Made by a program: the position numbers and the translations under genes. A DNA stretch of 33,652 nucleotides from a virus. The notes below the pieces were generated by a model, which saw only the letters and a program-made list of their open reading frames with translations, did no database searches and was not told where the DNA came from. The stretch's first letter is position 1. Each line of letters starts with the position of its first letter. The stretch is from IMG/VR virus record IMGVR_UViG_3300045988_086956, positions 1 through 33,652 of that record; one strand, given 5' to 3'. Positions 2,805-33,541 of the stretch are shown piece after piece.

Positions 2805-5800
2805 TTAAATAGTTAATTTACTTGGGATAGAATAAGAATATCCGTGTTCAGTTGTTTTATTATGGTGTAATAATTCTACGTTATCAATAAGCGAATTAAT
2901 TCGATTGGCAATAGATTGTAAAATTCCATGCAATGATGAATAGTAAGTCCCCGAATTTTCAAGATATAACCATACATCGCCAACTTGTAAAACAGATTCT
3001 CGGCGGTCTTGTTGCCGTCTCGGATAAATTTGCAGTTTTCCTGTTGTAGAAACTACCCAACCGTCGGCGTTTTCGTATGCTGAACTGGCAAGTCTTACAG
3101 CATCACCTACAACATCAATTGAATCAACTCCATTTCCATTCCATGCCCGAATGCCTACAAAACCACCATCATTAGAGCTTTCACTTCCCCAGCGGTTCGA
3201 ACCAATAACTGTGACCCCAACCTTTGTACCATTTGAGGAACCGGTCGCGAATTTTACAAACTGATTCGGAAAACCACCCGTTACTCGTCTTATAGCCGGA
3301 TCGTCTGTATAAAATTCCAGTGTACCGGAACTTAAATCAAAGCTGGTATTTCCGTTTAACGATTTTAAAAGGCCGCCTTTGATTTGCGTAGCGCTAAAGT
3401 CAATTGTTGACAGTTTATTGATAAACGCTTGCTTAGCTACCAAATTGTTTAACAAGGCATCATCCGCAGTCAACTTGCGAACGAGAGCATAATCTACTTT
3501 TAATTCAGCAGCTGTTACTGCGTCTGCTGCCAGAACTTCTGTCGTCACTGCTCCAGCTGCTAGATGGGCAGTTGTGATTGTATTAGCTGCTAAATTTCGT
3601 CCTGTAATAGACCCGTCCACAATCAAATCACCCGTTATGCGCATAAGCTTTGTAATGGCTTCCATGCTTTCAGGATTTTGGACAAAAAGACTGGCAATCG
3701 TCTTGCCATTAACGACCTTACCTGTCCCAAAACTAATTTGTCCAGGTGTGATATTGATATCTGTCTTTTTCACCATTTCGCCGACAGAGGATTGAAGTTT
3801 TTTAAACTCACCATCTACCGTCTGTTTGTACTCTGCTAACTTCGTGTCCGCATAATTTTGATTATTTTCTGGCGCTGGTTGATAAGCCCGTTTCATCGTG
3901 CCCTCGTATACGTCAATTTCACTAATCCACACAGTAGCGCTTATTCCATTGCTGGAACCCATATTATCAAAACGAATTGAGAATCCATCATAGTTACCGC
4001 TGTTAAACGTAACGGAAAATCGTTGTGCTTCTATAGGGGATAAACGTTGGTGGAATACATTTATTGCATCTTTCCAGACATTGTCTGTATCAGAAAGTAA
4101 GCCTACTAAAACACGAAATCCAGATACATTACCTGACATGAAACCAGTAAACGACAAAGTATATGTTGTATTTTTTTTCAACTTGTTAAATATCACATTT
4201 TGTAAATAAGCTATATTAGGTTCGTTTGTATCAATTACAAACATTGGTTTTTTGCCATTTTTATAAAAAACATGCGTACGATTAGTAAACAATTTGTCAT
4301 CTGTTCCACCCCAATAACGATCCCCAAGTTCAACCGCACCGTTCAAAACCAAATTAGGGCTACCGATATTTAGCTCTTCAAATCGTCTCGTAATTCCTCG
4401 CACATCTTCTGTGTATTGAGATTTTGCGACATAGCTTTCAGACACTTGCTTTCGCAACGCTTCTGTACTGCGTGCTGTTTCCGTGCGTGTGTATTGTTCT
4501 AGCTGCTCTCTTCGCTTGCTGTCATCTGCCACATAAGATTTGACTGCAGTCATGTCCGTGTTCAGACCTTCTGCAGTTTTTTCAAATGTAGCGCGGGCTG
4601 CGGTGATTTGTTCGTCTGTATCTTCAAGCGCTGGTTTAGGCGTTGTGGCTATGTTTCCATCCTCCAGTTGTGGATCTCGGATCCAAATAACGTCACCCGC
4701 TCTCCAGCCAAAACCATAAACAACAAAAGACCAGAACCTCTCAAATTTAACAATAAAGGCTTTTGAGACACGTTGCCATTTATCGGACAACTGGACTCCA
4801 GTTGTGATGTTTCCGCCAGCTTCAAATCCAATATTATATAACTTAATATCAGTCCGATTTGACTTAACATCAACAGACCACGTCATCTGTTTACCTTGCC
4901 ACTCTACACCGCGTAAATCCACCAGCGGCTTGTGAATACCACCATCATTACCTTTAACATTAGTGGCTTTTAACGCCCATCCACTCTTCGCGGTAGGGTC
5001 TTGCACTCGTTCAAAAGTCCATTCGGAACCTGCTATATTAAACGGCAGCAAGCCATCAAAGTCATAATGTCTGATGTAATTACGGCCGCCGACAGAAATC
5101 TGACTAATTTCTTCCCGAATTTTTCCGGCTTCCTGTTTCACTTCTGCCTTGCTAGCTTTATCGCCAAGCTGGCCAGTAATCCGTGCTATATTCTGTGTAT
5201 TGCTTTGTTCGTATGCTGTCTGCTGCGTGCTGATACCAGCCAGGTCAGATTTGACTTGTTTGATGTTAGCTTCTGTACTGCTTTGTAAATTCGTTAAATT
5301 TTGCTTGACTTTACCAATTTCAGCATTAGCATTCGCCAGACCTTGATTAAAATCTCGTTTGACTTTCTCAACGACTTCGCTTTTCGTCTGTTGTAGCTTT
5401 TGCTCGATAGACTGATTGATTTCAGACTTGACTTGTTCCGCTTTCGCTTTTGCTTGTTCAATACCATCGTTGATTAAGCTTTTCTGTTTTTCAAATTCTG
5501 CATCAAATGCTTTATCAGCATTCCTAAGAGCTCGTTCGATAGCAATTTCTTGAGCCGAATTTCCTATTTCTAATATCTCATTAGCAACAGATGATATTCC
5601 ATTAGACACTCTAGAACCGCCAACTCCCGGTTTATCATCAAACGTCAGAGAGATATACTCTTCTGTTAGAGCATTGAACTCATAAGCGATAGCTTTTTTA
5701 AAAATATCTATATTATGCTTTCTGCTCTTAAGATTGACCGTGTCACCGATGTGAACAATCTGACCGTCAAGCTCATAAGCTTCGATTTTAATAGCATCTG

Positions 5801-6617
5801 ACGATTTATCAATACCCTCGTTTTTAAATTTAGCCTCTGCCCACTGTCTCAGTTCATCAACTGTCTTAGCATTGTTATTCTCATACTCTTTTTCATTAAC
5901 GTATGGATAAGAGTTGATAAGTGGGCTGTCTACAGTGACCTTGAGAGTCGTTTCTTGCTCAGCTCCCTCTGATTTAAATGTAGACTTAGCATAGATACGG
6001 GTGGCAACATTTTGAGAATCTTTTGTTCGTTGGTACGATTTTAGATTCTTATGAGTTGTAATGATGACTCCACGGTTAGTCCCACGGTTTTTCTTCACTG
6101 TCAAGGCAAAGTTATCCCGAACCAGTTCACCTTCCCATGTACCCACAATAGAATGCTTTCCATCAAGTAAGATACTATACAACGTATCATCCTCTATAGT
6201 GTTGAAGGTTCTTTTATCCCATATATCGCTGGTAAAAGAGAAGTCTTGAATATCAGCTTTAGCATTTTGAACCATCTGAGATAGTGCCATAGCACAACCT
6301 AGATTTACAACCTTAAGTGGCTTGACAGAACGCTTCATCACATCGTCTGTAATATGATATGCCTGAATTTCCAGATGATCATTATTTTCAATCGGTTTCT
6401 TAATGCGGAAAAGCTGCGGACCTAGCACAGGTGCTGGAGCTTTTATTAACATGTCTTCCTTAATGAGCTGATAAATACCGCTATCAGTAATCGGATAGCG
6501 TACATTCAGGGTGAAGTCGCCATTCTGTTCTTCCTTGACAATGGCAGAATCGGCTTCATGAAGCGGTATGCCATTCCATTTGACAGTTTTTACATTCCTA
6601 TCTAATAAAAAAAGCAA
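2805..6617 (-). CDS. Tail-associated protein (Tal) fused to host-specificity/receptor-binding modules
   Basis: 1270 aa following Dit. N-terminal region resembles phage minor structural protein N-termini. A long coiled coil is followed by two beta-rich modules starting GGRNYI and SPNLVLNG. An Ala/Thr-rich helical segment (ANTITTAHLAAGAVTTEVLAADAVTAAEL) precedes the C-terminal head. TTG start abuts the Dit stop. Confidence 0.8.
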   Translation of the reverse strand: MLFLLDRNVKTVKWNGIPLHEADSAIVKEEQNGDFTLNVRYPITDSGIYQLIKEDMLIKAPAPVLGPQLFRIKKPIENNDHLEIQAYHITDDVMKRSVKPLKVVNLGCAMALSQMVQNAKADIQDFSFTSDIWDKRTFNTIEDDTLYSILLDGKHSIVGTWEGELVRDNFALTVKKNRGTNRGVIITTHKNLKSYQRTKDSQNVATRIYAKSTFKSEGAEQETTLKVTVDSPLINSYPYVNEKEYENNNAKTVDELRQWAEAKFKNEGIDKSSDAIKIEAYELDGQIVHIGDTVNLKSRKHNIDIFKKAIAYEFNALTEEYISLTFDDKPGVGGSRVSNGISSVANEILEIGNSAQEIAIERALRNADKAFDAEFEKQKSLINDGIEQAKAKAEQVKSEINQSIEQKLQQTKSEVVEKVKRDFNQGLANANAEIGKVKQNLTNLQSSTEANIKQVKSDLAGISTQQTAYEQSNTQNIARITGQLGDKASKAEVKQEAGKIREEISQISVGGRNYIRHYDFDGLLPFNIAGSEWTFERVQDPTAKSGWALKATNVKGNDGGIHKPLVDLRGVEWQGKQMTWSVDVKSNRTDIKLYNIGFEAGGNITTGVQLSDKWQRVSKAFIVKFERFWSFVVYGFGWRAGDVIWIRDPQLEDGNIATTPKPALEDTDEQITAARATFEKTAEGLNTDMTAVKSYVADDSKRREQLEQYTRTETARSTEALRKQVSESYVAKSQYTEDVRGITRRFEELNIGSPNLVLNGAVELGDRYWGGTDDKLFTNRTHVFYKNGKKPMFVIDTNEPNIAYLQNVIFNKLKKNTTYTLSFTGFMSGNVSGFRVLVGLLSDTDNVWKDAINVFHQRLSPIEAQRFSVTFNSGNYDGFSIRFDNMGSSNGISATVWISEIDVYEGTMKRAYQPAPENNQNYADTKLAEYKQTVDGEFKKLQSSVGEMVKKTDINITPGQISFGTGKVVNGKTIASLFVQNPESMEAITKLMRITGDLIVDGSITGRNLAANTITTAHLAAGAVTTEVLAADAVTAAELKVDYALVRKLTADDALLNNLVAKQAFINKLSTIDFSATQIKGGLLKSLNGNTSFDLSSGTLEFYTDDPAIRRVTGGFPNQFVKFATGSSNGTKVGVTVIGSNRWGSESSNDGGFVGIRAWNGNGVDSIDVVGDAVRLASSAYENADGWVVSTTGKLQIYPRRQQDRRESVLQVGDVWLYLENSGTYYSSLHGILQSIANRINSLIDNVELLHHNKTTEHGYSYSIPSKLTI

Positions 6618-28493: not shown

Positions 28494-29177
28494 ATGAAAC
28501 TTAATGTACTTATTGAGTTTAGAGATGCCCGAACAACCATTACAATTGATACTCCTTCAAAATGCCCCCACTGTGGCAGAACCATGTCCCCTCAACACGT
28601 TGGACAAAGTACAAGCTCTGAAAGTACAAGTGCCTCAGAAGAAGGAAGATTTTCCGTTATTTTTCGATGTTCTTTTGAAAACTGCTTAAAATATTTTGTA
28701 ATAGAATACATCCACGATAATTATGAAATAGCAACGATGGTAGACTATTCATACCGTCCACCTATCAAGGTAAAACTCCCTGAAAATATAGAGAAGGTTT
28801 CTCCCGTTTTTGTTGAAATCTATTCTCAAGCAACGGTTGCAGAAAGAGAGGTATTAGATCAAATAGCAGGCGTCGGCTATCGCAAAGCAGCCGAATTCCT
28901 CATAAAGGACTACGCAATTTCCAAAAATCCATCTGACGAAGAACACATCAAATCAATTATGCTTGGAAAAGTAATCGCTGACTACTTGAATGATTTTCCA
29001 AAAATTCAAGCTTTAGCAAAATCCGTCGCTTGGATTGGAAATGATGAAACTCATTATGTCCGCAGACATGACGATAAAGATATCCGAGATTTAAAGAAGT
29101 TCATTCTCTCAGCGGCTCAATTTATTGCTGCTGATTACGATGCGGACGAAGCCTTGGCTTTCACTTCTTCTGATTGA
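28494..29177 (+). CDS. Zn-ribbon plus DUF4145-like (HEPN-related) protein, candidate prophage defence gene
   Basis: CPHC...CSFENC four-Cys ribbon. C-terminal half has YRKAAEFLIKDY...VAWIGNDETHYVRRHD. Own promoter. Opposite strand to the surrounding early genes. Confidence 0.6.
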   Translation: MKLNVLIEFRDARTTITIDTPSKCPHCGRTMSPQHVGQSTSSESTSASEEGRFSVIFRCSFENCLKYFVIEYIHDNYEIATMVDYSYRPPIKVKLPENIEKVSPVFVEIYSQATVAEREVLDQIAGVGYRKAAEFLIKDYAISKNPSDEEHIKSIMLGKVIADYLNDFPKIQALAKSVAWIGNDETHYVRRHDDKDIRDLKKFILSAAQFIAADYDADEALAFTSSD

Positions 29178-29348: not shown

Positions 29349-29879
29349 ATGCCTATTATCACTAATGAAAATGTCCAAATCTGGACGCTCTATGCGACAG
29401 TTGTTATTGCAATCGTTGGTTTTATTTTCAACACAATATCCCTCTGGCAAACAAAGAAAGCAACCGAGGATATAGCAAAACCATATATCAATGTTTACGT
29501 TGATGCTTACGCTGTCAAATCACAACAACGAGTTTATGCATTCAAAAACTTTGGGCATACGCCAGCGTACATCAAAGATATTAAAATTGACGGTAAATTA
29601 GATAAGTATAATAGCAAACATAACTTCCGATCACTAATTGGTAACATGATTGCTCCGGGTCAGAAGTTAACATCATCTATACATCCAGACTATAAAGGCA
29701 GTATTACATTAAAAATCACCTATACTGATAGCAAGAGACGTCTATATACTGATAGCTTTAAACTCAATGCAGGAATAGCATCTGATATGCTCTATACTGT
29801 CAATGAATCAAATAAAAGTGATAATCCTGCAAGTGCTATCCGTCAATCGACAATGGCACTGTTACGTGACCTACGTTAA
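29349..29879 (+). CDS. N-terminally anchored membrane protein, Sie-like superinfection exclusion candidate
   Basis: TM segment WTLYATVVIAIVGFIFNTISLW followed by a beta-rich domain. Own promoter and RBS. Confidence 0.6.
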   Translation: MPIITNENVQIWTLYATVVIAIVGFIFNTISLWQTKKATEDIAKPYINVYVDAYAVKSQQRVYAFKNFGHTPAYIKDIKIDGKLDKYNSKHNFRSLIGNMIAPGQKLTSSIHPDYKGSITLKITYTDSKRRLYTDSFKLNAGIASDMLYTVNESNKSDNPASAIRQSTMALLRDLR

Positions 29880-30067: not shown

Positions 30068-30096
30068 TTGACAAATTCTAAAACTAGTTTTAGAAT
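30068..30096 (+). promoter_or_regulatory. Rightward promoter TTGACA-17-TAGAAT with an embedded perfect 20-bp palindromic operator (30076-30095)
   Basis: TTGACAAATTCTAAAACTAGTTTTAGAAT. The palindrome is TTCTAAAACTAGTTTTAGAA. Confidence 0.6.
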
Positions 30097-30217
30097 AAGA
30101 ACATAAAGAAAAGACTTACTAAAATGTAAGGTCGACCTATAAAAACGACGCCAATCAATTTTTTAAGGCTTTATTTTTTAGTTGTCTTGTTCGCTAACTC
30201 TTTAGCTTACGATATAT

Positions 30218-30246
30218 ATTTTAAAACTAGTTTTAGAATTTGTCAA
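30218..30246 (-). promoter_or_regulatory. Leftward promoter TTGACA-17-TAAAAT with an embedded near-palindromic operator (30219-30238)
   Basis: Its reverse complement is 28/29 identical to 30068-30096. Confidence 0.6.
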
Positions 30247-30251
30247 TAGTT

Positions 30252-30270
30252 TTTTAAACTAATTTTAAAA
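30252..30270. promoter_or_regulatory. Degenerate third operator-like site
   Basis: TTTTAAACTAATTTTAAAA resembles the operator with a 1-nt deletion. Confidence 0.35.
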
Positions 30271-30306
30271 TATTTTTTCGTATTGCTTAGAAAGGTTGAT
30301 AAATCA

Positions 30307-30654
30307 ATGTTCTTAGCATTCGACAGAATAAAAGAATTAGCTGATAAACAAGGGATATCTTTAAATATTTTAGAAGAAAGACTTGGATATAGCACAAATT
30401 ATCTTTACAGTTTAAAAAAAGGGAATCCTAAATCTGATAGATTGCAAGAGATTGCTGACTATTTCAGTGTATCTACTGATTATCTTTTAGGTAGGACGGA
30501 TAATCCAGCGATTGCTGGAGGAGGAAGTGAACCGGATGATATCGATAAAATCATAGACCGTGCTATGTTCTTCGATGGAAAGCCTCTAACCGATGATGAC
30601 CGTCGAGCCCTCCGCGGAATAATCTCAGGGTATATGAATAGCAAAGGAGATTGA
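30307..30654 (+). CDS. XRE-family phage repressor (CI/ImmR-like)
   Basis: HTH segment ISLNILEERLGYSTNYLYSLKKGN. The ATG at 30307, preceded by an AAAGG RBS, is preferred to the TTG at 30283. Confidence 0.8.
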   Translation: MFLAFDRIKELADKQGISLNILEERLGYSTNYLYSLKKGNPKSDRLQEIADYFSVSTDYLLGRTDNPAIAGGGSEPDDIDKIIDRAMFFDGKPLTDDDRRALRGIISGYMNSKGD

Positions 30655-30655
30655 G

Positions 30656-31771
30656 ATGTCTCATAAAAATCAAATTGAAATCTATCAATTTAACAGTCGG
30701 GCGAAATATTGGCTAGTTAGAGCAGATGGCGGAAAATATTACGATGATTTTAAATACAATCACTTCATCTCTATTCATCACAACCAAGTTACGCTTGCAG
30801 ATTTGCAGACAACTGACCTACTCCTCACAACAGAAAAAACTATAGAGCACTATAAGCAACAAATAGCGAGAGTGTATCAAGACAAAAGTCTATCAAAGCA
30901 CCAAATTACATTTACTGCTAAACGACTCTATAGATTTATAGAAGATATGAATGTAGGAGATTACGTCGTAGTTCCATCGTTTAAGTCGAATTATTTTTTA
31001 ATCGGACAAATTACAAGTGATGTATATGAAAAAGATATGCCAGACGGACAAGTGACCCTAAATCACGGATATGAACAATCTGAAGATATTAAACGTCGAA
31101 ATGTCAGATGGATCAATGAAGTCCCTCGTTGGAAAGTAAACTCGAAATTTCTATACAGTACACTGACAGTTCATCACACTATCTTTAATATCACAGATTT
31201 ATCAAAATACATCAATGGTCTCATATCTCCGCTTTACTTCAAAGATGGAAAATTACACCTTCAGTTGAGAGTTAACACCAAGGAACCTATCACATCAAGT
31301 ATGTGGAAAAATCTTTATTCTATCATCGATGAGTATAAAAACCCTGAAATTGATGAGGAAATAATTGCTACATCTAATGTTGAGAGTCCAGGTGAAATAA
31401 CCCTACAATCCATAAGTCAATTCATATCGGACAATCATTGGATGCTGAACTCAGGCTTAATAGGACTAGTACTTCTGTTTGGAGATATTGATTTCAAAGG
31501 TATTAAAGTAAAAGGACTTTTTCCTTATTTACAACAAAGAAAAACAGCCAGATTGGAAGAACGCAAACTGACTGTAGAAGTTGAAACGATGGAAAAAGAT
31601 GCTGCCCTGAAAGATATACAGCGAGAAGTAGAAATAGAAAAAACTCATAAAGAATTAGAATTACTAAGAAATGTAAGGGCTTTTGAAATAACCGTCGACT
31701 CTCCTAATGTCTCTTACGAAAACGTACCCCAAACGCAAATGGGTTCCGATGAGAATCAGGGTGAGGGATGA
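30656..31771 (+). CDS. 371-aa protein of unknown function (soluble N-domain, hydrophobic segment, charged coiled-coil tail), candidate abortive-infection/defence effector
   Basis: The ATG lies 2 nt after the repressor stop and has an AAAGGAG RBS. No motif could be assigned. Confidence 0.7.
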   Translation: MSHKNQIEIYQFNSRAKYWLVRADGGKYYDDFKYNHFISIHHNQVTLADLQTTDLLLTTEKTIEHYKQQIARVYQDKSLSKHQITFTAKRLYRFIEDMNVGDYVVVPSFKSNYFLIGQITSDVYEKDMPDGQVTLNHGYEQSEDIKRRNVRWINEVPRWKVNSKFLYSTLTVHHTIFNITDLSKYINGLISPLYFKDGKLHLQLRVNTKEPITSSMWKNLYSIIDEYKNPEIDEEIIATSNVESPGEITLQSISQFISDNHWMLNSGLIGLVLLFGDIDFKGIKVKGLFPYLQQRKTARLEERKLTVEVETMEKDAALKDIQREVEIEKTHKELELLRNVRAFEITVDSPNVSYENVPQTQMGSDENQGEG

Positions 31772-31895
31772 TTTTTACAACAAGAATAAAAGTCACAAAA
31801 GTTATTAAAATAATACCCCTGTCTAAAAAGAAAAAAGTGAGAGAAAAAATAGAATATAACAATAAATATCCCAAAAGGATTTGAATGTTTTTCAT
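31704..31895 (-). CDS. 63-aa hydrophobic two-TM peptide with basic tail
   Basis: SD GAGGAGGAG 5 nt from the ATG, with its own promoter. Overlaps the 3-prime end of the 371-aa gene by 68 nt. Confidence 0.55.
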   Translation of the reverse strand: MKNIQILLGYLLLYSIFSLTFFFLDRGIILITFVTFILVVKIIPHPDSHRNPFAFGVRFRKRH

Positions 31896-31926
31896 ACCAA
31901 CTCCTCCTCTTTGTTTTCTTAATTTG

Positions 31927-31955
31927 ATTTTAGCAAAAACAAACTGTTTAGTAAA
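31927..31955 (-). promoter_or_regulatory. Promoter TTACTA-16-TGcTAAAAT for the 63-aa ORF
   Basis: Extended -10 read on the minus strand (TAAAAT = reverse complement of 31927-31932). Confidence 0.45.
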
Positions 31956-31973
31956 GGAATTTTGCGAGAAAAT

Positions 31974-32357
31974 ATGACAGAAAAAGAATTATTGGATCTC
32001 CATAAAGTTACTTTGCGCGAGTTTACCAGTCTACAATGGTCACGGAACGGCTTCTATGACGATATAAATCGAATCGTCTACATCAATGCCGATTTAAGCT
32101 CAGATGAAAGGCGAAAAGTCCTTTTTCATGAACTCGGTCATTTAGACCACTACCGTAGCCTATATCAAAATGCTCCTTTACTATGTGAGAACGAAGCGAA
32201 TCGTTACATGATTCAAAATCTGGTAGCCGAAGAGATAGCAGAATATGGAGTCGAAAGTTTCAATAGCATCCGATTTATGGAGCGCTATCAACTAAAAACA
32301 TCAACTGATGAAGTTATGATTCAAGACGAATTTTATAAACAAGTTAGCAATATGTAA
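31974..32357 (+). CDS. ImmA/IrrE-family HEXXH metallopeptidase (anti-repressor protease)
   Basis: HELGH plus a downstream ENEANRYM motif. 127 aa counted from the ATG at 31974. Confidence 0.75.
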   Translation: MTEKELLDLHKVTLREFTSLQWSRNGFYDDINRIVYINADLSSDERRKVLFHELGHLDHYRSLYQNAPLLCENEANRYMIQNLVAEEIAEYGVESFNSIRFMERYQLKTSTDEVMIQDEFYKQVSNM

Positions 32358-32473
32358 AAAATCCCCACACTCGCCATCGCCAAATTTTGAGTGTGAGGAT
32401 ATCCTGTATAGTAAACGGCATTAAATGGCCAGTTTTACTATACCCATTTTATCAAAAAAGTGAGGTAAAAACA

Positions 32474-33541
32474 ATGGCATACTTCAGGAAAAGAGAAAAC
32501 GGTTGGGAATATCGAATCTCTTATAAAGACAAAGACGGCAAATACAAGCAGAAATCAAAAAGTGGATTCAAGACAAAGAAACTAGCTCAAGCTGCAGCCA
32601 GAGAGATAGAGGATAATCTGTCCGAAAATATCCTGACAGACAAAGATGTCACGCTCTATGATTTTGTCAAAACGTGGTCCGATGTTTACAAGCGACCACA
32701 CGTCAAGGATAAGACATGGGAGACTTATACCAAAAACCTCAAACATATCAAGACCTATTTTGGAGATTTGAAAGTAAAGGATATTACTCCCCTTTATTAT
32801 CAAAAGCGACTCAATGAATTTGGCGAAAAGTACGCCCAAGAAACTCTTGAGAAATTCCACTATCAAATAAAGGGCGCTTTGAAAGTGGCCGTCAGAGAGC
32901 AAGTGATCAGCTACAATTTTGCTGAAGATGCCAAAGTCAGATCTCAGATAGAAACCAGGTCAGAAGATAATGATTTTTTAGAAGAGAGTGAGTATAAGGC
33001 TCTAATTTCGTCCACACGCTCGAATATTCAATACGTGTCCTATTTTACCCTCTATCTCCTTTCGGTCACTGGTATGCGCTTTTCTGAGGCTCTGGGGCTT
33101 ACCTGGGACGATATAGACCTCAAACAAGGAATCATTGACATCAACAAGGGATTTGATTACTCAAAGACTCAAGATTTTGGAGATTTGAAAAACGAAAGCT
33201 CAAAAAGAAAAATCCCAATCGATAAGATCACGATTGAGACTTTGAAAACTTATAAAAAGAAATACTGGCAAGCAAATATAAAGAATCGAGTCTGTTTTGG
33301 TGTTTCAAATTCGGCCTGTAATAAACTTATCAAGAAACTTGTAGGTAGGCCTGTCAGAAACCACAGTCTAAGGCATACTTACGCATCTTACCTGATATTC
33401 AAAGGGATAGACATTGTGACCATATCAAAATTACTAGGCCACGAAAGCCCAGATATAACCCTAAAAGTCTACTCGCACCAGATGGAAGCTTTAGCAGATA
33501 AAAACTTCGAGCAAATCAAAGAAATATTCCTAACGGCTTAA
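32474..33541 (+). CDS. int: Tyrosine integrase with N-terminal arm-binding domain
   Basis: MAYFRKRENGWEYRISYKDKDGK N-terminus. Catalytic R (GMRFSEA), HxxR (HSLRHTY), H and Y (LGHES...LKVYSH). The ATG at 32474 follows GTGAGG. Confidence 0.92.
   Translation: MAYFRKRENGWEYRISYKDKDGKYKQKSKSGFKTKKLAQAAAREIEDNLSENILTDKDVTLYDFVKTWSDVYKRPHVKDKTWETYTKNLKHIKTYFGDLKVKDITPLYYQKRLNEFGEKYAQETLEKFHYQIKGALKVAVREQVISYNFAEDAKVRSQIETRSEDNDFLEESEYKALISSTRSNIQYVSYFTLYLLSVTGMRFSEALGLTWDDIDLKQGIIDINKGFDYSKTQDFGDLKNESSKRKIPIDKITIETLKTYKKKYWQANIKNRVCFGVSNSACNKLIKKLVGRPVRNHSLRHTYASYLIFKGIDIVTISKLLGHESPDITLKVYSHQMEALADKNFEQIKEIFLTA

Follow-up and report, generated by a model that had tools for sequence, protein, structure and literature searches.

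Gene pair at the repressor–peptidase interval

The DNA analysed here, viral record IMGVR_UViG_3300045988_086956 of IMG/VR (33,652 nucleotides (nt); hereafter the window), is a Streptococcus prophage in which a gene for a 371-amino-acid (aa) protein, here called X, lies between an XRE-family repressor gene and a gene for an ImmA-like metallopeptidase, and is met on the opposite strand by a convergent, overlapping gene for a 63-aa protein with two predicted transmembrane (TM) segments, here called Y. X and Y form a conserved and mobile gene pair, and they may act as an anti-phage module expressed in lysogens. The features that define the pair are as follows.

30656–31771, plus strand: gene X, 371 aa (open reading frame (ORF) list; phrog_10226; family alignment; AlphaFold2 (AF2) model)
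30643–30649, plus strand: ribosome-binding site (RBS) AAAGGAG of X, inside the 3′ end of the repressor gene (sequence reading)
31704–31895, minus strand: gene Y, 63 aa, two-TM hairpin membrane protein, convergent with X (ORF list; hidden Markov model (HMM); alignment; substitution pattern)
31901–31909, minus strand: RBS GAGGAGGAG of Y, conserved in all streptococcal loci
31927–31955, minus strand: promoter-like site of Y, TTTACT-17-TAAAAT with a TG-extended −10 (promoter scan)
31704–31771, both strands: antisense 3′ overlap of X and Y, 68 nt, in which Y codon position 3 corresponds to X codon position 2

The 371-aa ORF between the repressor and the ImmA-like gene was first pointed out in a reading of the window's letters and ORF translations (the sequence-only reading), and it is present at these coordinates, with its ATG one base beyond the repressor stop (30654) and its own AAAGGAG ahead of it; the peptides quoted for it (KYWLVRADGGKYYDDF, VGDYVVVPS, RRNVRWINEV and WMLNSGLIGLVLLFGDI) all occur in the translation. 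X is a real, conserved gene rather than a fortuitous ORF: it belongs with PHROG phrog_10226, a family of unknown function (E-value of 9e-55), and has 53 database homologues, with identities down to 33%, in Streptococcus, Lactococcus, Aerococcus, Bacillus and Lysinibacillus, one identical protein being recorded as a hypothetical protein of S. constellatus. An exhaustive profile search returned 382 representatives of 50%-identity clusters at E ≤ 1e-30 and 1577 at E ≤ 1e-3. X is under purifying selection: across the 20 unique streptococcal loci used for all substitution patterns reported here, the fractions of variable sites in the X-only stretch were 0.58, 0.32 and 0.89 at codon positions 1, 2 and 3, respectively. 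Searches with the single sequence and with a profile gave no match in Pfam (none at E ≤ 1), NCBIfam or the sequences of the PDB, and the database tag PF28530 occurs neither in the Pfam copy used nor in any paper found. No promoter or terminator was detected between the repressor and X, and the arrangement suggests that the two are co-transcribed in the window; the co-expression anticipated by the sequence-only reading is plausible from the 1-nt spacing.

A conserved antisense partner

The sequence-only reading overlooked Y: the 190-bp interval between X and the ImmA gene is not empty and houses Y on its minus strand. Using an HMM built from ten Y sequences, a convergent Y was found adjoining X in 68/68 core-family loci (E 1e-7 to 1e-31), which come from streptococci, Aerococcus, Lactiplantibacillus and six genera of Bacillaceae. 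Y overlaps the 3′ end of X by 23–158 nt in 67 of these 68 loci, the exception being a locus (L010) with a truncated X, where Y lies 17 nt beyond the X stop. The TGnTAAAAT element upstream of Y is conserved across loci. More distant X subfamilies carry, in the same position, a convergent ORF of 56–73 aa with two TM segments that is analogous to Y; these include Streptococcus phages 33888 and SF39, satellite Javan339, Staphylococcus phage SP276, Lactobacillus phage G2-Guo and phages of group B streptococci (GBS). As a base-rate control, a Y-like ORF was found at 60/63 unique full-length X genes; for the remaining genes of these loci with a length of 150 aa or more, the count was 24/186 (Fisher p 6e-34). 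The reciprocal test gave the same association, as a Staphylococcus aureus homologue of Y found by profile search converges with a 380-aa X homologue (hhalign probability 100%, E 4e-47). Two relatives that have only the N-terminal domain in common with X (L020 and L022) have no Y. The weakest match to the Y profile (P0234, E 5e-5) was rejected as a false positive that sits in an unrelated co-directional phage operon.

The Y alignment is characterised by the motif MKxxQ(I/V)xxGY, two hydrophobic segments (TM1 and TM2; 17-residue Kyte–Doolittle (KD) windows of 1.4–3.1), the C-terminal motif PHPxxxx(N/Y)PFAF and basic termini, a pattern which suggests a hairpin with both ends inside the cell and the conserved tail in the cytoplasm. 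No family match was obtained for Y in Pfam, PHROGs, PADLOC or NCBIfam, and its database homologues are all unnamed. A Y-type gene is unannotated in satellite Javan339 (L003, 4548–4721) and Staphylococcus phage SP276 (L002, 4630–4833) and is listed as a hypothetical gene in the records of phages 33888 and SF39; the family thus appears to be under-called in phage annotation.

The substitution pattern identifies Y as protein-coding. In the Y-only stretch, the fractions of variable sites at Y codon positions 1, 2 and 3 were 0.57, 0.37 and 0.73, and within the overlap 15/21 sites were variable at Y position 3 as against 6/21 at Y position 2, which is the third codon position of X (Fisher p 0.013). 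The Y frame therefore dominates selection in the overlap, and since the variation tracks this frame, the C-terminal motif of Y is the primary constraint there; the conservation of the acidic tail of X is probably in large part a by-product. RNA folding and a terminator scan of the overlap revealed no hairpin and no terminator, and neither Rfam nor tRNA scanning gave a match anywhere in the window. Given the convergent geometry, the 3′ overlap and the lack of a detected terminator, the X transcript is likely to control Y, either as an antisense RNA or by transcriptional interference. Overlap is not universal, as X and Y of the 33888/Javan339 subfamily are separated by a 13-nt gap.

This geometry raises the question of whether the pair is an addiction module akin to type I toxin–antitoxin (TA) systems, in which Y would be the toxin, the 3′ end of the X transcript the antisense antitoxin and the X protein secondary, so that loss or silencing of the prophage would release Y. 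Y is indeed small, hydrophobic and separately promoted, its mRNA must be complementary to the X transcript over 23–158 nt, all loci preserve the convergent arrangement, no terminator was detected between the two genes, and the same 3′-overlap geometry occurs in yonT/SR6 of SPbeta (PMC5848175). However, X is large, strongly conserved and under purifying selection, and its recognisable sensor domain (see below) means that it is not a mere carrier of an antisense RNA. Furthermore, Y differs from typical single-TM toxins in having two TM segments and a conserved cytoplasmic tail, the X and Y genes of the 33888/Javan339 subfamily do not overlap, no Rfam antitoxin family was found in the window and Y matched no known family of type I toxins. 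As the main function of the pair, a TA-like module is improbable, yet antisense control of this kind may well operate as a regulatory layer upon the anti-phage role favoured here.

Domain architecture of X

X is predicted to comprise a PUA-like N-terminal domain followed by a C-terminal module of three parts.

30695–31252, plus strand: PUA-like (YTH/EVE-type) domain, X residues 14–199 (PADLOC PDC-S02; Foldseek; hhalign)
31226–31420, plus strand: small beta-beta-alpha-beta-beta domain, X residues 191–255, with invariant NV(E/Q)SPG (N241, V242, S244, P245, G246) (alignment; AF2)
31439–31495, plus strand: conserved hydrophobic helix (SGLIGLVLLFG), X residues 262–280, followed by a GxKxKGxxP hairpin (hydropathy)
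31517–31684, plus strand: long charged helix, coiled-coil-like, X residues 288–343 (AF2)

The AF2 model of X, built on a 31-sequence alignment, has a predicted local distance difference test score (pLDDT) of 74 and a predicted template modelling score (pTM) of 0.71, with residues 10–250 at pLDDT values of about 80–94. When this model was compared with the PDB using Foldseek, the top 50 matches were all YTH domains (best E 4.5e-4, probability 0.93–1.0, TM-scores on target 0.33–0.52), and in a search of BFVD an EVE-domain protein ranked fifth. The loose resemblance to PUA/EVE-like sensor modules suspected in the sequence-only reading thus holds at the level of the fold. The residues that are invariant in the family alignment of this domain are Y18, W19, L20, V21, R22, A23, G25, G26, Y29, F32, D102, P107, K146, R148, W152, E155 and R158, five of which are aromatic (Y18, W19, Y29, F32 and W152). 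YTH-type readers bind a flipped modified base in an aromatic cage.

A link to a defence catalogue is provided by the PADLOC model PDC-S02, which X matches at E 2.3e-17, residues 17–188 aligning to positions 3–156 of the 324-position model. Five other X subfamily members likewise match only its N-terminal half, no subfamily tested matched beyond position ~175 (models 308–346 long), and neither Mrr_cat nor any other Pfam family was found in X. The complete arrangement is seen in a Salmonella relative identified by tblastn, in which an X-type N-terminal domain is joined to Mrr_cat (E 2e-23 for the latter); hhalign aligned this protein to X residues 14–199 with a probability of 97.7% (E 1.7e-12), and the motifs WxxRxDGGKxYDDF, GD, LIGxIxSD and RxVxW are common to both. 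PUA-superfamily domains fused to HNH or PD-(D/E)xK nucleases have been shown experimentally to be modification-dependent restriction enzymes (PMC6765204), and domains of the EVE/YTH-like kind occur widely among the type IV systems of prokaryotes (PMC7641849, PMC11090510). Since X is homologous to the N-terminal half of PDC-S02 and lacks the nuclease half, it can be viewed as a homologue of a restriction-like sensor domain in which the nuclease has been replaced; by inference, this domain would bind nucleic acid, possibly with modified bases.

The C-terminal module looks non-catalytic. The hydrophobic segment noticed in the sequence-only reading is a conserved helix, whereas its assignment as a TM segment is borderline, the 19-residue KD maximum ranging from 1.07 to 2.07 in 31 family members and so straddling the TM threshold of 1.6; it is possibly a membrane anchor or a docking helix for Y. 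For the charged tail, described in the same reading as a coiled coil, AF2 gives helices at residues 288–312 and 318–341 in full-length X and a single 55-residue helix when the C-terminal half is modelled separately. The extreme acidic tail (QTQMD) is disordered in the model (pLDDT about 30). X has no signal peptide and no lipobox, and the bulk of the protein is predicted to be cytoplasmic.

Genomic context and mobility

The genes and sites surrounding the pair in the window are those of a temperate phage switch and of the adjoining prophage end.

30068–30273, both strands: genetic switch with facing promoters at 30068–30096 (plus) and 30246–30218 (minus) (promoter and repeat scan)
30283–30654, plus strand: XRE-family prophage repressor (HTH_3 E 2e-6; phrog_8; capH model E 1e-11)
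31962–32357, plus strand: ImmA/IrrE-type M78 metallopeptidase, 131 aa, HELGH (Peptidase_M78 E 2.7e-8; phrog_87)
32462–33541, plus strand: tyrosine integrase at the prophage end (Phage_integrase E 3e-23)

The repressor probably starts at ATG 30307 and not at TTG 30283. The longest integrase ORF begins at TTG 32387; the ATG at 32462 (MAYFRKRENGWEYR...) is preceded by GTGAGG and agrees with the start of homologous integrases, and is therefore probably the true start. The switch operator TTCTAAAACTAGTTTTAGAA is a 20-bp palindrome present in three copies at 30075, 30218 and 30250, two of which lie within a 30-nt inverted repeat. Both near-consensus promoters are located on this repeat, 119 nt apart and arranged face-to-face as opposed to the usual back-to-back. 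The plus-strand promoter (30068–30096) presumably drives the repressor–X transcript.

In the sequence-only reading, it was suggested that the XRE repressor, X and the ImmA-like protease could form one defence unit, akin to Rosmerta, that shares the prophage immunity circuit or has been grafted onto it. On this view, for which CapH/CapP regulation is a further parallel, X would be an effector or toxin that the protease regulates or cuts. In favour of this view, the order XRE-X-Y-ImmA-integrase is found in the window, in several streptococcal prophages and in the 26%-identical subfamily of phage SF39, the repressor matches the capH model and X is translationally close-coupled to it. A survey of X homologues, however, revealed no fixed placement between these genes. 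Among 44 distinct upstream flanks there were 19 HTH proteins, 1 M78 peptidase, about 7 endolysins and 1 Abi_alpha; 8 of the HTH proteins carry Peptidase_S24, which marks them as self-cleaving repressors that need no ImmA. The 43 distinct downstream flanks included 8 M78 peptidases and 12 recombinases (11 tyrosine integrases and 1 serine recombinase), the remainder including YolD, PemK toxins and amidase. Two loci (L006 and L010) with cassettes 93–94% identical to that of the window have the order HTH+S24 repressor, X-Y, Abi_2, integrase, and no ImmA. The two switch genes are adjacent in Aerococcus, with X-Y two genes further on; phages of GBS have ImmA on the upstream side of X; the S. aureus repressor is set apart from X by two unrelated genes, the 153-aa gene beside this repressor giving no family match; and in Bacillaceae the pair is located beside lysis genes (endolysins) at the opposite prophage end, with no switch nearby. 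The Rosmerta comparison in particular did not stand, as the ImmA-like protein matched RmrA only at E 0.018 over 60 residues, and neither X nor the repressor matched any Rosmerta component.

The most direct evidence against such a unit comes from Streptococcus phage OlisA2 (L094), whose repressor and IrrE genes are 74–84% identical to those of the window. Between its cI repressor and IrrE genes lies a scar (2412–2500, unannotated in the record) in which the initial 19 nt of X and an internal piece of 62 nt (window 31510–31571) survive, while the equivalents of window positions 30675–31509 and 31572–31936, including all of Y, are missing. These remnants imply that X-Y was ancestral in this lineage and was lost by deletion without loss of the switch genes, which makes the pair dispensable, accessory cargo. 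A literature search on OlisA2 returned only irrelevant matches. XRE and ImmA are thus context and not conserved partners of X; the Rosmerta- and CapH/CapP-type readings were rejected because their association with X is not conserved, and a functional trio is very unlikely.

The positions that X-Y does occupy, between repressor and integrase or beside endolysins, and also in satellites, are cargo-type sites that correspond to the classical moron and defence sites of temperate phages and satellites. Its proximity to endolysin and holin genes in Bacillaceae and some other loci, and the resemblance of Y to class II holins in size and in having two TM segments, could also be taken to mean that the pair serves the phage itself as a regulator of lysis or lysogeny, with a holin- or antiholin-like Y regulated by X. 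Such a role is the least probable of those considered, as the streptococcal pairs share the lysogeny strand with the repressor and are apparently transcribed together with it, the pair is found in satellites without lysis genes and was lost from OlisA2, and sites beside lysins are likewise classical moron positions.

The integrase–repressor interval is a defence hotspot, and it is also where the superinfection exclusion proteins Sie2009 and Ltp, which act at DNA injection, are encoded in phages of lactic acid bacteria. A complex of Y and X at the membrane that blocks or intercepts injected DNA would fit this shared slot, the membrane nature of Y and a nucleic-acid-binding domain plausibly held at the membrane. 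On the other hand, family library searches detected no homology of X or Y to known Sie or Ltp proteins, and the cytoplasmic character of X, devoid of signal peptide and lipobox, is not what such a role would predict; exclusion at DNA entry is regarded as unlikely when compared with the broader anti-phage reading, which covers abortive infection as well as a block to entry; the sequence evidence fits either.

Several neighbours of the pair are themselves defence or toxin genes. These are found directly beside X-Y at 6605–7528 in L006, 6779–7729 in L010, 4862–5416 in L003 and 2336–3091 in L004, and include Abi_2 (AbiD/F-like) in Streptococcus pneumoniae and Streptococcus sp. prophages and a PemK/MazF toxin in satellite Javan339; the Abi_alpha-type neighbour is probably the DUF4393 gene that precedes X in Lactobacillus phage G2-Guo, and lipoprotein genes also occur among the neighbours. 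In phage SF39 (L021), which has a divergent X-Y nearby, two annotated genes of the Fst family of type I toxins are located just upstream of the repressor (1769–2173), so that antisense-controlled small membrane toxins are already part of the X-Y neighbourhood. In the Lactiplantibacillus loci (L055–L070 and L082–L086), the ORF upstream of X at about 3710–3930 (MTGIEPATTAWKAVVLPLNYTRI...) looks like the antisense translation of a tRNA gene; if this is right, X-Y would occupy the outermost part of the prophage there, flanked by the integrase on one side and by the attachment site in the tRNA gene on the other. Within the window, two further plus-strand genes stand among minus-strand early lytic genes, one encoding a 227-aa DUF4145/phrog_1305 zinc-ribbon protein (28494–29177) and the other a phrog_9607 protein of 176 aa whose N-terminal part includes a hydrophobic segment (29349–29879); they look like additional lysogen-expressed morons and are possible defence genes.

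A proposed anti-phage role

It is proposed that X-Y is a self-contained, mobile two-gene accessory cassette of Firmicutes temperate phages and satellites which functions as a lysogen-expressed anti-phage module, a reading to which we assign a probability of about 0.5. The defence role put forward in the sequence-only reading is hereby kept as the best available explanation, and the functional coupling to XRE/ImmA that accompanied it is abandoned. In the window, X would be made from the repressor transcript and so be present in every lysogen, as a cytoplasmic protein that senses the nucleic acid of a superinfecting phage through its PUA-like domain. The C-terminal module would couple X to Y, with its two predicted TM segments and conserved, presumably cytoplasmic tail, and the resulting complex might perturb the membrane, by depolarisation or by a block to entry, such that the infection is aborted or excluded. 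Y would be expressed under its own promoter, converging on X, and the 3′ overlap of the two genes probably adds antisense or transcriptional-interference control. A stronger formulation, that X-Y represents a new class of prophage defence in which a PUA-like reader has exchanged its nuclease for a membrane output via an antisense-overprinted two-TM partner, combining protein-level sensing, by which X would activate Y, with RNA-level restraint of Y by the X transcript in the manner of type I TA systems, is tentative and, taken as a whole, doubtful. A literature search for an anti-phage system combining a PUA, YTH or EVE domain with a membrane component found none, and no family name was found for X or Y.

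A number of points weigh against a defence role. The X-Y family is known from sequence and predicted structure alone, and the similarity of X to YTH domains is one of fold only (E 4.5e-4, TM-scores 0.33–0.52), the Pfam EVE and YTH models and curated ASCH and SRA models giving no match in X. The hydrophobic helix of X is not clearly a TM segment, and the AF2 model of the C-terminal half found no significant match in the PDB by Foldseek (best E 0.13, generic ferredoxin/ACT-like). Modified bases are not known to be common in phages of the hosts of X-Y. PDC-S02, the sole link of X to a defence catalogue, is an unvalidated candidate, one representative of which gave no protection against T4, T5 and T7 in Escherichia coli (bioRxiv 10.1101/2024.09.26.614923).

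If X-Y is a defence system, it would show that modified-base readers of the kind used in type IV restriction enzymes can be connected to an output that acts at the membrane instead of through a nuclease, and the 382 clusters recovered at E ≤ 1e-30 would represent a widespread addition to the prophage immunity of streptococci, lactococci, staphylococci, lactobacilli and bacilli, hosts that are relevant to dairy fermentation, phage therapy and pathogen evolution. Whatever the function of the pair, Y is a family absent from the domain and family libraries searched and missing from the gene calls of some public phage records (for example Javan339), and the X-Y overlap is a clean natural example of overprinting in which the frame of the small gene is dominant, offering a test bed for control by convergent transcription.

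Comparison with known systems

The XRE repressor and M78 peptidase that flank X-Y in the window are of the type found in ImmR/ImmA (ICEBs1 and phi105) and CapH/CapP. ImmR/ImmA, however, corresponds to the prophage's own switch, into which X-Y is inserted only in some streptococcal prophages, the pair being independent of it elsewhere. The prophage type I TA loci yonT/SR6 of SPbeta and bsrG/SR4 share with X-Y a small hydrophobic gene that converges on, and overlaps at the 3′ end, another transcript (PMC5848175), but the antisense partner of Y is a 371-aa coding gene under its own selection and Y itself is a two-TM protein with a conserved soluble tail.

As regards the sensor, PDC-S02 and X have a homologous N-terminal domain of ~170 aa; PDC-S02 is a single gene with an Mrr_cat PD-(D/E)xK nuclease, whereas X has a different C-terminal module and an obligatory small membrane partner. 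The YTH and EVE readers of type IV and modification-dependent restriction enzymes belong to the same fold class and follow the same logic of reader plus effector (PMC6765204, PMC7641849, PMC11090510), although X has no sequence match to Pfam EVE or YTH and its effector would be neither a nuclease nor a GTPase. The best functional analogy is with RexA/RexB of lambda, where rexAB is expressed with cI, and gp30/gp31 of mycobacteriophage Sbash, in both of which a lysogen-expressed cytoplasmic sensor is combined with a small membrane protein (PMC6426596). The resemblance would be one of design and not of descent, as X lacks DUF4747 and Y has 2 TM segments as compared with 4 in RexB; moreover, the Rex genes are co-directional in one operon, whereas Y is convergent with X and overlaps it.

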